64,000 bases of DNA from a virus. Position 1 is the stretch's first letter; each line of letters starts with the position of its first letter. The stretch spans positions 1 through 64,000 of the IMG/VR virus record IMGVR_UViG_3300027763_000038; one strand, given 5' to 3'. A program made the position numbers and the translations under genes. The notes beneath the pieces are model-generated. The model saw only the letters and a list, made by a program, of their open reading frames with translations, had not been told where the DNA came from and did no database searches. Positions 5,031 to 33,443 of the stretch are shown one piece after another.

Positions 5031-5435
5031 ATGACAACTCCAGATAATGAAAAACTAAAAGCTATAGCTGTTAAAATTTTAGAAAAATCTAATGTACAAA
5101 AAGATGAAGTATATGGATTTGCTATTATTACTATTTTAATGATAATTAGTATAGTTCTAACGTGTGTTAGAGTTTTACAAGAATGTAATAAAAGTAAGAT
5201 GACTACTAATTCAACAGCAGAAGATAAATATTCTATGTATGGTGAACAGCTCCATACTTTTAGTGAGCGTCGAGGCTGGTTTACAAAAATGAGAATCAAG
5301 AAAATTTTACGCAGAGAAATGAACAGAGAAGATTATGAAAAGTATTCATTAAGTATTTTGAATGCTTTGTTAGAAACAGGAGAAGTTCTCACGGATGATG
5401 AAATTAAAACCCTAGTGGAGAATGCCAATGTTTAA
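5031..5435 (+). CDS. Membrane protein, one TM helix
   Basis: SD AAGGTGA before ATG 5031; TM FAIITILMIISIVLTCV. Confidence 0.75.
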   Translation: MTTPDNEKLKAIAVKILEKSNVQKDEVYGFAIITILMIISIVLTCVRVLQECNKSKMTTNSTAEDKYSMYGEQLHTFSERRGWFTKMRIKKILRREMNREDYEKYSLSILNALLETGEVLTDDEIKTLVENANV

Positions 5436-27956: not shown

Positions 27957-28990
27957 TTACATATCTTAGAAGTAGTTCTTATGGTACACATTCTATGTGT
28001 CCACAACAATATTTTTTTGAGTATATTCTTGGTTTAAGATCTCCATCTAATAAAAAAGCAGATAAAGGAACTATTTGTCATAAGGCTTTAGAAATATTAG
28101 CATTTATTAAACTTAATACCCAAAACAATAATCCAATTTTTGAGGATGATGTTGTGGGGAAAGTAGATATAAATAATTATAGCATTAAAAAAATAACTGA
28201 TCAAGTATATGAATATTATACTTCTCAGTTCACCCATCATGTTTGGGAACCAAAAGATCATAAGGATTGTCATGCATGGATTAATAAAGCTTTAGATTAT
28301 AATAAGGGAATGTTTGATCCTAGGAATAGACATATCGTTCAGCCAGAACAACGCTTTGATCTTGAGATTAAGAAACCTTGGTCATCTTACCGATATGAAA
28401 CTAAAGATGGAATCCTTGAAGGAAACCTTGCTATAAAAGGAACTATTGATCTTATCACTAAAGTCAACGATAATACTCTAGAAGTTATTGATTGGAAAAC
28501 AGGACGAAGATTAGATTGGGCTACTGGAGAAGAAAAGACCTTAGAGAAATTACAAAATGATCCTCAATTAAGAATATATCATTATGCAATTCAACATATG
28601 TATCCAGATATCGAACACGTAATGATATCCATTAATTTTATCAACGACGGAGGAGCATTCACTATTTGTTTTGATAAAACTGATTTATACAAAACAGAAA
28701 TAATGTTAAAACAAAAATTTGAGACTATTAAGAACACTCAAAAGCCACAACTAAATAAAAGTTGGAAATGCAGTAAGTTATGTCATTTTGGTAAAACTAC
28801 ATTTGCTAATAGTTCAATAGAGCCGTTAACAGAATATAGAGATGGTCAACTAACAGCTAAAGATCAATGTATGACAAAGTGTGAACAAGTTAAACATGAC
28901 ATAGACACGACCGGAATGAAAGCTGTCATTGACAAGTATCAGGCTCCCGGCTATAGTATAGGTCATTACAAGGCACCTGGCACCGTATAA
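27950..28990 (+). CDS. PD-(D/E)XK Cas4/RecB-like exonuclease (probable Fe-S), ATT start
   Basis: RSSS..T..MCP..Y, G.ICH..LE, GTIDL, IDWKTG, QL.IY, C..LCH...C; SD AAGGA 8 nt before in-frame ATT 27950. Confidence 0.85.
   Translation: MIITYLRSSSYGTHSMCPQQYFFEYILGLRSPSNKKADKGTICHKALEILAFIKLNTQNNNPIFEDDVVGKVDINNYSIKKITDQVYEYYTSQFTHHVWEPKDHKDCHAWINKALDYNKGMFDPRNRHIVQPEQRFDLEIKKPWSSYRYETKDGILEGNLAIKGTIDLITKVNDNTLEVIDWKTGRRLDWATGEEKTLEKLQNDPQLRIYHYAIQHMYPDIEHVMISINFINDGGAFTICFDKTDLYKTEIMLKQKFETIKNTQKPQLNKSWKCSKLCHFGKTTFANSSIEPLTEYRDGQLTAKDQCMTKCEQVKHDIDTTGMKAVIDKYQAPGYSIGHYKAPGTV
28929..28957 (+). promoter_or_regulatory. Sigma70-type promoter TTGACA-N17-TATAGT upstream of dnaE
   Basis: Perfect -35, 17-nt spacer, 5/6 -10. 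Confidence 0.65.
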
Positions 28991-29026
28991 CATTTTTAGT
29001 TATCACAAATAAACAAGGAGACAATT

Positions 29027-29072
29027 AGATATGGACATGACTAGAGGATATGTGCCTCTGCATGTCCATTCT
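29027..29072 (+). promoter_or_regulatory. Long mRNA stem-loop covering the dnaE start and first 14 codons
   Basis: ATGGACATG (29031-39) is the exact reverse complement of CATGTCCAT (29061-69); inner AGAGG/CCTCT; outer AGA/TCT. Confidence 0.7.
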
Positions 29073-29075
29073 TAG
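29031..29075 (+). CDS. dnaE: DnaE N-terminal mini-ORF MDMTRGYVPLHVHS* (first strand and HxH ligands of the PHP domain)
   Basis: SD AAGGAG at 29015-20; YVPLHVHS is the canonical DnaE N-terminal motif; ends at TAG 29073-75. Confidence 0.8.
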   Translation: MDMTRGYVPLHVHS

Positions 29076-29082
29076 GTGGGCT

Positions 29083-30924
29083 ATGTACTCACTTTTGGAT
29101 GGACTATCGCAACCGAGAACTATTGCTGAAAGATGTCAGGAAATAGGTGCAACTTCTTGTGCATTAACTGATCATGGTAATATTGCTGGATCAGTTAAAT
29201 TTTATACAGAAATGAAAAAGAAGGGGATTAAACCTATTCTAGGGTGTGAGATTTATGTTTGTGATCAAGACCCCAAGATTAAAACCAAAGAAAATAAAGA
29301 TCTGACCCACTTTGTTATTCTAGCTAAGAATTATGAGGGGTGGAAAAGCCTTATTAGAATTGTTTCTGAGTCTAACCAGCCAGATCATTTTTATCATAAG
29401 CCAAGACTCAATATAGACACTCTTGCACAATATTGTAACAATAATGTTATCGGGTTTTGTGGTCATGCCGGATCCTATTTAGCAGATAAAATTAGTGCTG
29501 ATAATCAGCTACTTGGTGACTGGAGAAATATAGGTATTGACCAAATTGGTAAACTTAAAGACGTTTTTGGTAAAGACAATTTCTTCTTAGAAGCACAATT
29601 GATGGATTCGGTCAATTCTCCTATTCAAACAGTTTTGACTGGTGCTATGAGAGATTTGGCCAAAATTACCAATACGAAAATCATCTCCACGCCAGACGCT
29701 CACTATTGCCGTAAGGAGGACGCTGTAGATCAAAGGGTGCTTCTCTGTAATAATTTAAAAACGACCTTCCCAGAGATCAGCAGGAAGATCAGTAATGATG
29801 AGGAGGTGCCTCTTGGGTGCTTTTTTACATCTGATAACTTCCATATCTTGTCTCCAGAAGAAATGGGCCATTTTCATACAGAAGAGGAAATGGAAAATAC
29901 TAAGTTAGTAGATGCATTATGTGAAAACTATAATATCTTAGATAAGCCACATTTACCTCCGTTTCCTTGTCCAGATGGGACCAATCCAGATGAATATTTG
30001 AGGCAGTTATGTCGTAATGGTTGGAGAGATAAAATTGCTAATAATATAGATAAAGATCTTCAAAATGATTATGTTAATAGAATTAAGTACGAATTAGAGG
30101 TTCTACAAGGAGCGGATCTTTCTAGCTACTTTTTAATTGTACAAGACATTGTGAATTATGTCAGAACAAATAACTGGCTTCCGGGACCGGGAAGAGGAAG
30201 TGCTGCTGGTTGTCTGGTTTCTTACTTGATTGGTATTACTAGTATTGATCCTATTAAATATGGTTTATTGTTTGATAGATTTTATAATGCTGGACGAAAT
30301 AGTAAAGACCATATCTCTATGCCTGATATCGACGTAGACGTACCTATCAATAAGAGAGAAAACGTAATTGAATATATTAAGCAGTGTTATGGGGCCGATA
30401 AGGTTTCTCAAATGATTACATTTAATACCATTAAGGGTCGTGGAGCTATTAAGGACGTATTAAGAGTATATGGTAATATATCTTTTGATGAAATGAATAA
30501 GATTACTAAAAGTATTCCAGACGAAGCTAAAATTGCAGACGATCTTCAAGAAATGAAAGAAGAAACCGGTGAAGCATCTATTATTCGTTGGGCTTTAGAA
30601 AATGAGCCAGATAAACTGAAAGAATGGTGCTATATAGATGAAAAAAATGAATTGCAGGGACCACTTGCCAAAAGGTTTGAACAGGCTATTAGATTAGAAG
30701 GCACCAAGTCCAATCAGTCTAAACATGCGGCTGGTATTGCAATTAGTGCTCAACCATTAAATACTCTATGTCCTATGGTGTACGATTCAAAAAATGATCA
30801 ACTCATAGCTGGCATGGAAATGCAAGATTTAGAAGCGTTAGGTATTATCAAATTTGATATTCTTGGCGTGGCAATGTTGGATAAAATTATGACTATTCAA
30901 GACATCTTATCAAAAGGAGACTAA
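29083..30924 (+). CDS. dnaE: DNA polymerase III alpha, PHP + palm part
   Basis: YSLLDG, TDHG, GCE, KPR, DAHY, YFLIV.D, GRGSAAG, PDIDVD, HAAG, KFDILG. Confidence 0.93.
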   Translation: MYSLLDGLSQPRTIAERCQEIGATSCALTDHGNIAGSVKFYTEMKKKGIKPILGCEIYVCDQDPKIKTKENKDLTHFVILAKNYEGWKSLIRIVSESNQPDHFYHKPRLNIDTLAQYCNNNVIGFCGHAGSYLADKISADNQLLGDWRNIGIDQIGKLKDVFGKDNFFLEAQLMDSVNSPIQTVLTGAMRDLAKITNTKIISTPDAHYCRKEDAVDQRVLLCNNLKTTFPEISRKISNDEEVPLGCFFTSDNFHILSPEEMGHFHTEEEMENTKLVDALCENYNILDKPHLPPFPCPDGTNPDEYLRQLCRNGWRDKIANNIDKDLQNDYVNRIKYELEVLQGADLSSYFLIVQDIVNYVRTNNWLPGPGRGSAAGCLVSYLIGITSIDPIKYGLLFDRFYNAGRNSKDHISMPDIDVDVPINKRENVIEYIKQCYGADKVSQMITFNTIKGRGAIKDVLRVYGNISFDEMNKITKSIPDEAKIADDLQEMKEETGEASIIRWALENEPDKLKEWCYIDEKNELQGPLAKRFEQAIRLEGTKSNQSKHAAGIAISAQPLNTLCPMVYDSKNDQLIAGMEMQDLEALGIIKFDILGVAMLDKIMTIQDILSKGD

Positions 30925-30926
30925 TT

Positions 30927-31121
30927 ATGGCAACACAAAAACTTAAGTTTATGGATGTTCCGGTTGATACTATATTCATATTTGAGAATAATAAGTACAA
31001 GAAGATTCCAGAAGAAAGAATTAGTTGCTGCACAGTTATGAACGCTGTTAGCGCCGCTAATGCTGAACAAAAAGTTAATATTTTACCACTAATAGAAGTA
31101 GAGGTTGAGACCGCCGAATGA
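30927..31121 (+). CDS. Small hypothetical protein between DnaE parts
   Basis: SD AAGGAG; ATGA coupling to the exonuclease gene. Confidence 0.7.
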   Translation: MATQKLKFMDVPVDTIFIFENNKYKKIPEERISCCTVMNAVSAANAEQKVNILPLIEVEVETAE

Positions 31122-31819
31122 TCAACTATAACAAAATTTGTGTTTTTGATTTTGAAACAGATGGCTCAGATCCTAAGTCCTGTAGTCCTGTGCAAATTGC
31201 GGCTGTAATTATTGATCCATTAAAATTAGAGATTGTTCCAAACTCAGAGTTTAATATCTTTTTTAAGCCAGAAGTTTTAGCAAATGACGAGGATTATCAA
31301 TATACTACAGACATCTTAGATTTTCATGCTAAAGTAAGAGGCTCTTCAAAAGAAACTATCTTAGCAGAGTGGAAGAAATATCCCTCGCAAGATCAATCTT
31401 GGAAGTTATTTACAAATTATCTAACTATGCACCACAGTAGGTCTAGCAAGAAGAGTCAATTTAGTGCTCCTATTGCTGCTGGCTACAATATTAATCGATT
31501 TGACCTACCAATTATTGATAGGCTTAGTCGTAAATATGGTAATATTAATAAAGAGGATAGAAGTGATATTTTTTATCCAAGAGACGTATTAGATATTATG
31601 AATCTAGTTTTTTATTGGTTTGAAAATAATGGAGATCTAAAAAATCTATCTTTGGATACTCTTAGAGATTATCTTGGTATCAATAAAGATGGTGCTCATG
31701 ATGCCCTTAAGGACGTTAAAGACTGCGCAGAGATTCTAGTTCGTTTTATGAGATTACATCGTAACCTAGGAAATAAGATTAAGTTTAAAGACTCATTTCA
31801 ATCACCATCTCATGCCTAA
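31118..31819 (+). CDS. DEDDh 3'-5' exonuclease (DnaQ/epsilon-like)
   Basis: ExoI DFETDG, ExoII YN..RFD, ExoIII HDALKD. Confidence 0.9.
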   Translation: MINYNKICVFDFETDGSDPKSCSPVQIAAVIIDPLKLEIVPNSEFNIFFKPEVLANDEDYQYTTDILDFHAKVRGSSKETILAEWKKYPSQDQSWKLFTNYLTMHHSRSSKKSQFSAPIAAGYNINRFDLPIIDRLSRKYGNINKEDRSDIFYPRDVLDIMNLVFYWFENNGDLKNLSLDTLRDYLGINKDGAHDALKDVKDCAEILVRFMRLHRNLGNKIKFKDSFQSPSHA

Positions 31820-33443
31820 AAAATTTCAATACAGTTGCGGGTGTTCTTTTGATATTCTGTCTGAACATGATGACAAAGACAGGATGACTCTAAAATTTAA
31901 TCCAAAAATAGAAGAGATTAGTTTGGAGTGTCAAAAGACTTGGGATCTAATTTCAGACGGAAATACTAAAGGGTGTTTTCAATTGGAATCTAGACTTGGT
32001 AAATCTATGGCCAAAAAATTAAAGCCAGAGAATATAGAACAGCTTTCTGCATTGATTAGTATTATGAGACCAGGATGCTTGGAAGCTTTTAGAGACGGTA
32101 AATCAGTTTCCAATCATTTTATAGATAAGAAGAATGGTCAGGAGTCTGTAGATTATTATCATCCCTCTTTAGAGCCTATTTTAAAGGGAACTTATGGGGA
32201 AATGATTTATCAAGAACAAGCTATGGAAATCGCTAAGATTGTAGCTGGCTTTGATCTTCAAGAAGCAGATATGTTAAGAAAAGCCATTGGTAAAAAGAAA
32301 CCAGAAGAAATGGCTAAGATTAAAATTAAGTTCTTAGAAGGTACAGAAAAAGTAGGAACAGTAGCTACTTCTCAAGCAGAAGAAATTTTCGGCTGGATTG
32401 AAAAGTCTCAGAGATATTCTTTTAATAAATCCCATGCTGTTAGTTATGCCATTAATAGTTATTTGTCAGCTTATACTAAGGCTCATTTTCCCAAAATATT
32501 TTTTGCTGCATACTTGAGATTTGCAAAAGATAAAATTGATCCTAAGGCAGAAATTAAAGAATTGGTACAAAATGCTAACGAAATGGATGTTCCTGTTTGC
32601 ATACCAGATATTAGAAACTTAAATCAACTATTCATTCTTAAGAATAATAAGATCTATTTTGGACTAACAGATATTAAAGGTTTTGGACAGTCTGTATTCG
32701 ATAAATTAGTAAAACTTAAGGAAGATAAGAAGTTAGATTTTGATACTATGAATTGGGTAGAAATACTTATGAAAGTTTTAATAAATATTAACTCTACATC
32801 GGCTAAGGCTTTGATTCAAAGTGGAGCTATGTCTTATTTAGGTAAACAGAGAACAGGAATGTTATTTGAATTTGGATTAGTGTCTGAACTTACAAAAAAA
32901 GAATCAGATTTCATTCTAGCTAATCTACATCAATATAAGTCTATCGGAGATGCTTTATATGATTTATATCACAATGGAAAGTCTAACAAGAACAGAAAAA
33001 CAATCATACTTGATTTAATTAACAGCTATAATAAACCCCCATATTCTTTAGAAGATAATCCAGACTGGATCTCTGATGCAGAAGATGCTTTCTTGGGGTG
33101 TAGCATCACCTGTTCTAAAGTCGATATGTATGATATTACAATGACTAATACAACTTGTAAAGATTTTAAGAATACCACACTAAAAGATAATATAATTCTG
33201 TGTGGAGAGATAGAGAATGTTGGTGTTACTAAAACTAAATCTGGTAAGACTCCGGGACAAGAAATGGCATTTGTTACTATGAGTGATGGAACAGGAGTAA
33301 TAGACTCTGTTGTGTTCTTCCCAGAAGCATATAAAGCTTATCGAAACATTTTGTTTGATGGTAATGTGATCATTATTAAAGGAAACAGAGCCAAGTCTGG
33401 TGATTCGTTAATAGTTGAAAAGACGTATATTCCTAAGACTTGA
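31812..33443 (+). CDS. dnaE: DNA polymerase III alpha, C-terminal part (fingers, HhH, OB)
   Basis: G.FQLES, RPG, YQEQ.M, LRKAIGKKK, YSFNKSHA..Y, GL..IKG.G, MAFVT..D..G...V.F. Confidence 0.93.
   Translation: MPKKFQYSCGCSFDILSEHDDKDRMTLKFNPKIEEISLECQKTWDLISDGNTKGCFQLESRLGKSMAKKLKPENIEQLSALISIMRPGCLEAFRDGKSVSNHFIDKKNGQESVDYYHPSLEPILKGTYGEMIYQEQAMEIAKIVAGFDLQEADMLRKAIGKKKPEEMAKIKIKFLEGTEKVGTVATSQAEEIFGWIEKSQRYSFNKSHAVSYAINSYLSAYTKAHFPKIFFAAYLRFAKDKIDPKAEIKELVQNANEMDVPVCIPDIRNLNQLFILKNNKIYFGLTDIKGFGQSVFDKLVKLKEDKKLDFDTMNWVEILMKVLININSTSAKALIQSGAMSYLGKQRTGMLFEFGLVSELTKKESDFILANLHQYKSIGDALYDLYHNGKSNKNRKTIILDLINSYNKPPYSLEDNPDWISDAEDAFLGCSITCSKVDMYDITMTNTTCKDFKNTTLKDNIILCGEIENVGVTKTKSGKTPGQEMAFVTMSDGTGVIDSVVFFPEAYKAYRNILFDGNVIIIKGNRAKSGDSLIVEKTYIPKT

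Follow-up and report, generated by a model that had tools for sequence, protein, structure and literature searches.

How a phage dnaE gene can specify a complete DnaE N terminus when a stop codon directly follows its 14th codon, and what is contributed by a stable hairpin that engages the start codon, are the questions raised by positions 29027 to 29072 of the window (the whole stretch of DNA analyzed, 64,000 nt, being part of a 108.8-kb IMG/VR virus record; G+C content, 33.6%). To our knowledge, T4 gene 60 is essentially the only natural case of efficient programmed bypass to have been studied well, and the role of exiting-mRNA pairing in it is still debated. The hairpin described here probably serves, on comparative sequence evidence, as the 5′ stem-loop of a compact cassette for programmed translational bypass, located at codon 14 of the phage dnaE gene. 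The structure is real, selected, and strictly co-occurring with a gap in the coding sequence, with invariable spacing and geometry; from these properties we infer the hop, the role of the stem in pushing the ribosome, and the landing site. The elements concerned are as follows.

29015 to 29020, + strand: Shine-Dalgarno (SD) sequence AAGGAG, 10 nt 5′ of the start codon and not in the hairpin.
29027 to 29029, + strand: outer stem extension AGA, pairing with the UCU take-off codon, with a 1-nt bulge at 29030.
29031 to 29075, + strand: 14-codon mini-ORF MDMTRGYVPLHVHS followed by UAG, carrying HxH(S), the start of the DnaE PHP motif.
29031 to 29039, + strand: 5′ arm of the outer 9-bp stem, AUGGACAUG (DNA ATGGACATG), the first triplet of which is the dnaE start codon.
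29040 to 29041, + strand: 2-nt bulge AC between the outer and inner 5′ arms.
29042 to 29047, + strand: 5′ arm of the inner stem, UAGAGG (fold and covariation).
29048 to 29054, + strand: 7-nt loop AUAUGUG, Tyr-Val codons (fold).
29055 to 29060, + strand: 3′ arm of the inner stem, CCUCUG, Pro-Leu codons (fold and covariation).
29061 to 29069, + strand: 3′ arm of the outer stem, CAUGUCCAU (DNA CATGTCCAT), His-Val-His codons, 0 nt before the take-off codon.
29070 to 29072, + strand: putative take-off codon UCU, Ser14, occupying the P site as the stop codon enters the A site; every cassette has TCT or TCC at this position.
29073 to 29082, + strand: 10-nt coding gap UAGGUGGGCU, which opens with UAG (29073 to 29075) and whose last triplet, GCU, is the presumed landing codon.
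29083 to 29085, + strand: presumed resume codon AUG, Met, the x of HxHS-x-YS; CAT or CAC in most other cassettes.
29083 to 30924, + strand: rest of the N-terminal half of a split DnaE, i.e., PHP from YSLLDG on plus the palm (profile match).
29070 to 29099, + strand: 3′ stem-loop, −7.3 kcal/mol, pairing UCU with GGA (29097 to 29099) and AGGUGGG (29074 to 29080) with CUCACUU (29088 to 29094).

The long open reading frame (ORF) lies in the +1 frame relative to the mini-ORF and reads ...M-YSLLDGLS...; it is matched by the Pfam PHP profile only from profile position 8, and the absent HxHS is found in the mini-ORF. Unbroken relatives read M-K-N-Y-[IV]-P-L-H-x-H-S-[MHT]-[YF]-S-L-L-D-G, and in the window this motif of invariant spacing is interrupted by exactly 10 nt. 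A hop across the gap would yield MDMTRGYVPLHVHS-M-YSLLDG... and thereby the canonical PHP spacing. Such a product scores 73.7 bits against Pfam PHP, with 61 residues placed collinearly on 61 profile positions, compared to 65.4 bits for a +1 frameshift product (64 residues on 61 profile positions) and 59.8 bits for the downstream part alone, which begins at profile position 8.

A protein-homology scan of IMG/VR returned 80 loci of 64 to 98% identity, 22 of which, together with the window's own record, are interrupted by a stop codon directly after HVHS, with the other 58 being unbroken. Two DNA pattern scans brought the total to approximately 50 distinct cassettes; three pattern hits (L097, L119, and L158) were set aside as chance matches that are not in dnaE. 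The gap measures 6, 8, 9, 10, 11, or 12 nt, thus covering all three frames, and each of the 50 cassette variants has a stop codon immediately after the take-off codon, TAA, TAG, and TGA all being used. The flanks are contiguous in homologues, HVHS, gap, and x-[YF]SLLDG in the cassettes corresponding to HxHS-x-[YF]SLLDG in the 58 unbroken relatives. The last gap triplet is TCT, TCA, or TCC in most cassettes and ACT, GCT, or GCC in the remainder, and the presumed transition from take-off to landing codon is UCY to UCN (Ser to Ser) in most, UCU to GCU in the window (a match at two of three positions), and UCC to ACU in others. In most cassettes the first codon past the gap is CAT or CAC, with no in-frame start; ATG occupies this position only in some lineages, including that of the window. 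At one locus (L086, ~1509 to 1600), an 11-nt gap is followed by H-D-S-L-L-D-G, where Asp replaces the otherwise invariant Tyr/Phe. A recoded stop codon, i.e., an alternative genetic code, was rejected, given the use of three different stop codons and the closure of frame 0 again soon afterwards.

The hairpin proper (29031 to 29069) comprises the 9-bp outer stem and a 5- to 6-bp inner stem with one U-G pair, and the ViennaRNA fold is identical to that given in the original prediction. The minimum free energy (MFE) of the 46-mer at 29027 to 29072 is −20.6 kcal/mol, against a mean of −9.1 kcal/mol (standard deviation, 2.6) for its dinucleotide shuffles (z score, −4.5), with none of 200 shuffles being as stable as the native sequence. 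In a 111-nt context the z score is −2.3, and the same hairpin forms the core of the MFE fold, with a smaller second hairpin after it. The MDM codons are, as had been noticed, the reverse complement of the HVH codons. Codon shuffling, which had been suggested as a check, gave a result of only moderate significance (z scores of −2.2 to −2.9), 19 to 92 of 3,000 recodings equaling the native fold; this synonymous-recoding control is weak, most of the stem being already specified by the amino acids M-D-M and H-V-H. The assertion that the hairpin ends at the take-off codon holds to the extent that the 3′ arm abuts the Ser codon in all cassettes, but does not extend to the outer AGA/UCU pairing, which is a trait of the window's clade; only 6 of 47 unique cassettes pair all three bases of the take-off codon with sequence upstream. 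UCU at 29070 to 29072 can pair with either AGA (29027 to 29029) or GGA (29097 to 29099), which are mutually exclusive partners, and this choice exists only in the window's clade. An Rfam scan of positions 28800 to 29300 at E values of up to 1 matched no family, and a terminator scan of positions 28700 to 29400 found none. An intrinsic terminator or attenuator was rejected, as the stem is followed by UCUUAGG and not by a U-tract, and no terminator-like site is present in the latter interval.

Both hairpin and gap were scored in 78 of the 80 loci (22 interrupted and 56 of the 58 unbroken, the remaining two falling outside the motif-based script). The folding energy of the 42-nt segment that terminates at the Ser codon is −15.5 to −21.1 kcal/mol in 22 of 22 interrupted loci and 0 to −6.3 kcal/mol in 56 of 56 scored unbroken loci, and these ranges do not overlap (Mann-Whitney P = 8 × 10⁻⁸ for unique sequences). 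When the cassette columns are left out of the DnaE tree, at least nine changes of the interrupted state are required, and the hairpin tracks the gap in 9 of 9 phylogenetically independent contrasts (P = 0.004). A scan requiring only the 3′ arm, a stop codon, and SLLDG recovered 76 gap-bearing dnaE stretches, the additional ones of which also possess the hairpin, while a scan for the hairpin before an unbroken junction found none. A link between the hairpin and the recoding site, as originally proposed, is supported: the hairpin occurs in every gap-bearing relative and in no unbroken one, and it always abuts the take-off codon. Gap and hairpin lie within approximately 100 nt and may travel as one module, in which case their co-occurrence could partly reflect linkage.

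Eleven unbroken genes carry the identical CAYGTCCAY codons, and 9 of these fold at just −0.8 to −6.2 kcal/mol. The other two (L165, ~393 to 424, and L170, ~5241 to 5272) possess a cassette-like leader, MGAKLNYVPLHVHS-H-FS, no gap, and a stem of only −11 kcal/mol, within an SD context that is that of the cassette locus L107. To judge from their sequences, these two genes look like apparent revertants that have undergone a precise gap loss, which would attribute the patchy distribution of the cassette at least partly to loss. Faster decay of the L165 5′ arm was not demonstrable, its identity to its relative being 72% against a background of 73 to 81%. Near-identical cassettes are present in distant DnaE clades, e.g., those of the window and of L024, both of which read gtgggct-ATG, and the scatter of the cassette suggests recombinational exchange as well as loss.

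Covariation was assessed in an alignment of 39 distinct hairpin sequences (A1), in essentially all of which the nine outer pairs are kept. Pair 7-33 is G-C in 24, A-U in 14, and G-U in 1 sequence and is never mismatched, A-C having been permitted by the search pattern; pair 1-39 is A-U in 38 sequences and G-C in 1 (GUG...CAC in L062); and pairs 5-35 and 6-34 include 15 G-U or U-G wobbles, read on the sense strand. Such wobbles would be C-A mismatches on the other strand, and the sense-strand RNA is therefore the selected fold. The inner stem also covaries (columns 14-28, for instance, are AU in 13, GC in 12, and GU in 3 sequences), its variation being achieved through synonymous Pro-Leu codons, with Leu retained via five different synonymous codons among the cassettes, and through free change at residues 4 to 6. 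The observed covariation score was reached in none of 500 column shuffles, sliding the register lowered the paired share from 84% to 30 to 48%, and the outer stem was recovered by RNAalifold. On a tree of the cassette genes, pair 7-33 has changed approximately nine times, with co-change in 6 of 6 well-supported independent contrasts, and in an arm-swap test the native 5′ stems averaged −18.0 kcal/mol versus −14.8 kcal/mol for swapped partners. The truly independent compensatory events may be fewer than the DnaE tree implies if whole cassettes recombine. Substitutions in the 5′ arm are nonsynonymous (M to V and D to G), whereas those in the 3′ arm are synonymous only (CAU to CAC), and the N-terminal extension therefore exists to serve the RNA. 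Selection on RNA structure, previously suggested from the window alone, is thus supported by compensatory A-U to G-C changes, sense-only G-U wobbles, and inner-stem covariation, and the covariation that was to be sought in homologues is found in the outer and inner stems alike.

A second stem-loop can form from the take-off codon onward in every cassette. In this 3′ structure, UCY pairs with the GGA of the Leu-Asp codons and the stop codon and gap pair with the [YF]-S-L codons, leaving the end of the landing codon and the resume codon in the loop. It was scored by per-sequence folds and an arm-swap test, the column counts of a MAFFT alignment (A2) having been dropped because gap indels shift the register. 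The stem covaries at synonymous third positions of the Tyr, Ser, and Leu codons, the Ser third-base pair being U-A in 25, A-U in 4, and C-G in 3 sequences and the Leu third-base pair being A-U in 25, U-A in 9, and G-C in 1, and native stems average −7.8 kcal/mol versus −5.4 kcal/mol for swapped partners. The gap is approximately the reverse complement of the downstream codons, which accounts for the frequency of GUG within it and argues against an SD-like signal there. The SD-like GGUG of the window's gap was consequently rejected as a landing signal, since the gap sequence tracks the complement of the Ser-Leu codons and the variants AGAGAA, GCGAAU, and ACGA are without GGUG.

In the mechanism that we propose, initiation would take place at AUG 29031, the first triplet of the 5′ arm, and translation would unfold the hairpin. 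When UCU (29070 to 29072) occupies the P site and UAG the A site, the 5′ half of the hairpin and its loop would already be outside the ribosome, and the 3′ half (29055 to 29069) would remain in the mRNA exit path. Once the peptidyl-tRNA(Ser) releases its codon, re-zipping of the hairpin would draw the mRNA from the exit side, each forward base allowing one more hairpin pair to form, which would favor forward motion over the 10-nt gap and prevent backward sliding. The tRNA would re-pair at the last gap triplet (GCU in the window and UCN in most relatives), and decoding would restart at AUG 29083; the junction peptide predicted for a hop landing at GCU is GYVPLHVHSMYSLLDGLSQPR, and that for a +1 frameshift is GYVPLHVHSRWAMYSLLDGLSQPR. 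The 3′ stem-loop (29070 to 29099) would hide the take-off codon, the stop codon, and the gap, representing the presumed counterpart of the gene 60 take-off/A-site stem-loop. If the ribosome is assumed to hold 12 to 15 nt 5′ of the P site, a border which is approximate, the exited mRNA gains a mean of 6.1 (15-nt border) to 9.7 (12-nt border) kcal/mol in MFE from take-off to landing across 49 cassettes, compared to 1.1 to 1.4 kcal/mol for an equal slide in unbroken genes.

A stem that refolds behind the ribosome and pushes it forward, as the original prediction envisaged, fits the geometry, this modeled energy gain on sliding, and published work on analogous systems. Pairing of the mRNA upon ribosome exit has been put forward as the forward driver in gene 60 (bioRxiv 10.1101/2024.12.09.627546), and hairpins that refold beside a recoding site, on its upstream side, promote +1 frameshifting and dampen −1 frameshifting (PMC3639245 and PMC6321510). 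A short translational bypass is favored because it explains all variants, and the canonical HVHS-x-[YF]S spacing, by one mechanism. Certain features are less readily accommodated. The landing triplet of the window, GCU, is only near-cognate for tRNA(Ser), and no tRNA genes were found in the window or in the whole 108.8-kb record, so that a phage-encoded tRNA(Ser) is not available as an explanation. At take-off the nascent chain would be just 14 residues long, too short to reach the tunnel constriction, and a gene 60-like nascent-peptide signal in the exit tunnel is therefore not expected; the efficiency of take-off without such a signal is unexplained by the hop model. Moreover, initiation should be lowered by a hairpin of about −19 kcal/mol that covers the start codon, an odd cost if the hairpin served only to stimulate the hop. 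It is conceivable, though we advance this only tentatively, that the hairpin is a self-contained zipper which supplies the hop with both force and direction in place of a nascent-peptide signal and at the same time renders DnaE output self-limiting, with approximately one productive ribosome at once. Because the 5′ arm is the start codon, the hop would succeed only if no second ribosome were initiating behind the first. An initiating ribosome on the 5′ arm may likewise space ribosomes, freeing the arm when it is needed.

Sequestration of the start codon by the hairpin, another element of the original prediction, is conserved in all cassettes; it may, however, be a by-product, as AUG is the complement of the His codon CAU and is placed in the 5′ arm for that reason. 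The companion proposal, that initiation at 29031 is throttled relative to initiation at 29083, finds no support as a general feature, given that most cassettes have CAT or CAC where some lineages have the ATG of 29083, a codon that corresponds simply to the Met of unbroken relatives (HCHS-M-YS). An operator function in initiation, whereby the hairpin hides the start codon to lower DnaE production or to space ribosomes and the drive for the hop comes from the stop codon and the 3′ stem-loop, is nevertheless the alternative to which we assign some weight, albeit it seems unlikely. The start codon is the first 5′-arm triplet in all cassettes, with an exposed SD 5 to 10 nt upstream (an SD-like 5-mer precedes the first 5′-arm codon at this distance in 49 of 49 unique cassette contexts), and the stem is strong enough to limit initiation. 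Cassette genes also have their own strong SD, as opposed to the ATGA coupling of unbroken relatives. The absence of the hairpin from all unbroken relatives, on the other hand, signifies that throttling is not a general need of dnaE; an AUG must stand in the arm as the complement of CAU; the 3′ arm always adjoins the take-off codon, at 0 nt; and the gapless L165 and L170, which retain the N-terminal extension, have a weakened stem (−11 kcal/mol).

Two further explanations dispense with a hop, and we regard each as improbable. If the 14-codon ORF were a leader or upstream ORF and a DnaE without HxH started after the gap, the hairpin could couple termination to re-initiation, and the window does have an ATG at 29083 with GGUGGG just upstream, as well as a downstream part that is still a PHP match by itself (59.8 bits). 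The spacing from GGUGGG to ATG is, however, just 2 nt, in most variants the gap is followed by CAT or CAC, with no ATG, GTG, or TTG available in frame, and the Y-x-P-L-H-V-H-S of the mini-ORF is kept through synonymous changes, as expected of a part of DnaE. Frameshifting stimulated by the upstream hairpin, +1 in the window and −1 or stop codon readthrough in relatives, appears no more probable than re-initiation. The +1 frame is open through the gap (HVHS-RWAM-YS), and +1 shifts are known to be stimulated by refolding upstream hairpins (PMC6321510); yet gaps of 6 to 12 nt in all frames would demand three mechanisms at one conserved cassette, Ser codons are recurrent at the end of the gap, and 2 to 4 variable residues would be inserted in a motif whose spacing is invariant in 58 unbroken relatives, as is reflected in a PHP score below that of the hop product (65.4 versus 73.7 bits). 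Least plausible of all, in our estimation, is a passenger without a translational role, such as a signal for recombination or homing in the DNA, or an element by which a mobile cassette affects mRNA stability. This would be in keeping with the patchiness of the cassette on the DnaE tree (at least nine changes) and with a hairpin segment that is more alike among cassette loci than the flanking DNA is, but it is countered by the wobbles that mark the sense RNA as selected, by the lack of a terminator or Rfam match, and by the fact that no nuclease accompanies the cassette in the window, the PD-(D/E)XK nuclease encoded upstream being present in unbroken relatives as well.

The genetic setting of the cassette-bearing genes differs from that of their unbroken relatives, in which (L004 to L017) the dnaE start overlaps the stop codon of the upstream nuclease gene as ATGA. 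Cassette-bearing genes instead have a spacer of approximately 40 nt and a strong AAGGAG before dnaE (28990 to 29031 in the window), and the cassette therefore substitutes an independent ribosome-binding site for translational coupling. A near-consensus sigma-70-like promoter sequence, TTGACA-17 nt-TATAGT (28929 to 28957, + strand; 11 of 12 matches), is situated approximately 75 nt 5′ of the dnaE start, within the 3′ end of the upstream PD-(D/E)XK nuclease gene; this match may be a coincidence, with TATAGT overlapping conserved GYSIG codons.

Bypass, as proposed here, resembles that of T4 gene 60 in several respects: the stop codon directly follows the take-off codon, both lie in the 5′ side of a stem-loop, and a further upstream stem-loop that can form only from exited mRNA is the proposed forward driver (10.1101/2024.12.09.627546 and 10.1101/2022.08.31.505936). 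Matching of the take-off and landing codons, a property of gene 60, is seen in most dnaE variants but extends to only two of three positions in the window. The two systems nonetheless diverge. The gap is 6 to 12 nt here as opposed to 50 nt in gene 60, and the 5′ stem-loop is located 0 nt rather than 9 nt from the take-off codon and includes the start codon. With 14 residues at take-off, the dnaE cassette would have no nascent-peptide signal in the exit tunnel; it has no conserved mini-SD 6 nt before the landing site; and its landing and resume codons are in the loop of the take-off hairpin. The host gene is dnaE and not a topoisomerase subunit gene, sequence similarity is absent, and, unlike in gene 60/MobA cassettes, no MobA-type HNH endonuclease adjoins the cassette in the window. 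The terminase of Streptomyces phage Hau3, which has two 10-nt bypass inserts and a proposed 5′ stem-loop and for which bypass is backed by mass spectrometry in E. coli (PMC10732093), is similar in that a short insert (10 nt) breaks the frame of an essential phage gene, with flanks that are contiguous in relatives. The trigger in Hau3, however, is a rare UUA in the A site with a regulatory rationale, whereas here it would be a stop codon; an internal SD is proposed in Hau3, and no SD is conserved in the gap here; and the approximately 50 natural variants of the dnaE cassette supply covariation. The SARS-CoV attenuator and engineered hairpins (PMC3639245 and PMC6321510) likewise lie directly 5′ of the recoding site, re-form at the mRNA exit, and produce a 3′ bias, but these concern 1-nt shifts and are mostly eukaryotic or engineered, in contrast to a natural, bacterial-phage element with gaps of 6 to 12 nt.

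Hairpins that sequester a start codon are also known from phage translational control, the MS2 coat and replicase operators being examples. The dnaE hairpin is like these in that AUG is paired in a stable stem with an SD nearby; the MS2 operators, however, serve protein binding or coupling and are unrelated to recoding, while the 3′ arm here consists of the His-Val-His codons beside the take-off codon. A literature search for bypass in dnaE found nothing relevant, and a preprint on gene 60 homologues does not mention a polymerase or dnaE (10.1101/2022.08.31.505936). Among isolated phages, the best DnaE match is only approximately 34% identical, and no annotated precedent was found there.

The dnaE cassette would thus represent a minimal natural version of programmed bypass, consisting of a 14-codon leader, a gap of 6 to 12 nt, and two hairpins. 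Because dozens of natural variants and strict presence/absence contrasts are available, the driver hypothesis is directly testable with short reporters, and, were the zipper reading true, approximately 50 natural variants would constitute a ready mutational series for exiting-mRNA pairing as a driver of bypass. There is also a consequence for annotation, as gene callers cut such dnaE genes at YSLLDG, with the loss of the HxH metal ligands of the PHP domain. In the window, DnaE is itself split, the PHP-plus-palm half extending to 30924 and the fingers/HhH/OB half occupying 31812 to 33443, with a 64-amino-acid ORF and an RNase T/epsilon-like exonuclease gene (31118 to 31819) located between the two.
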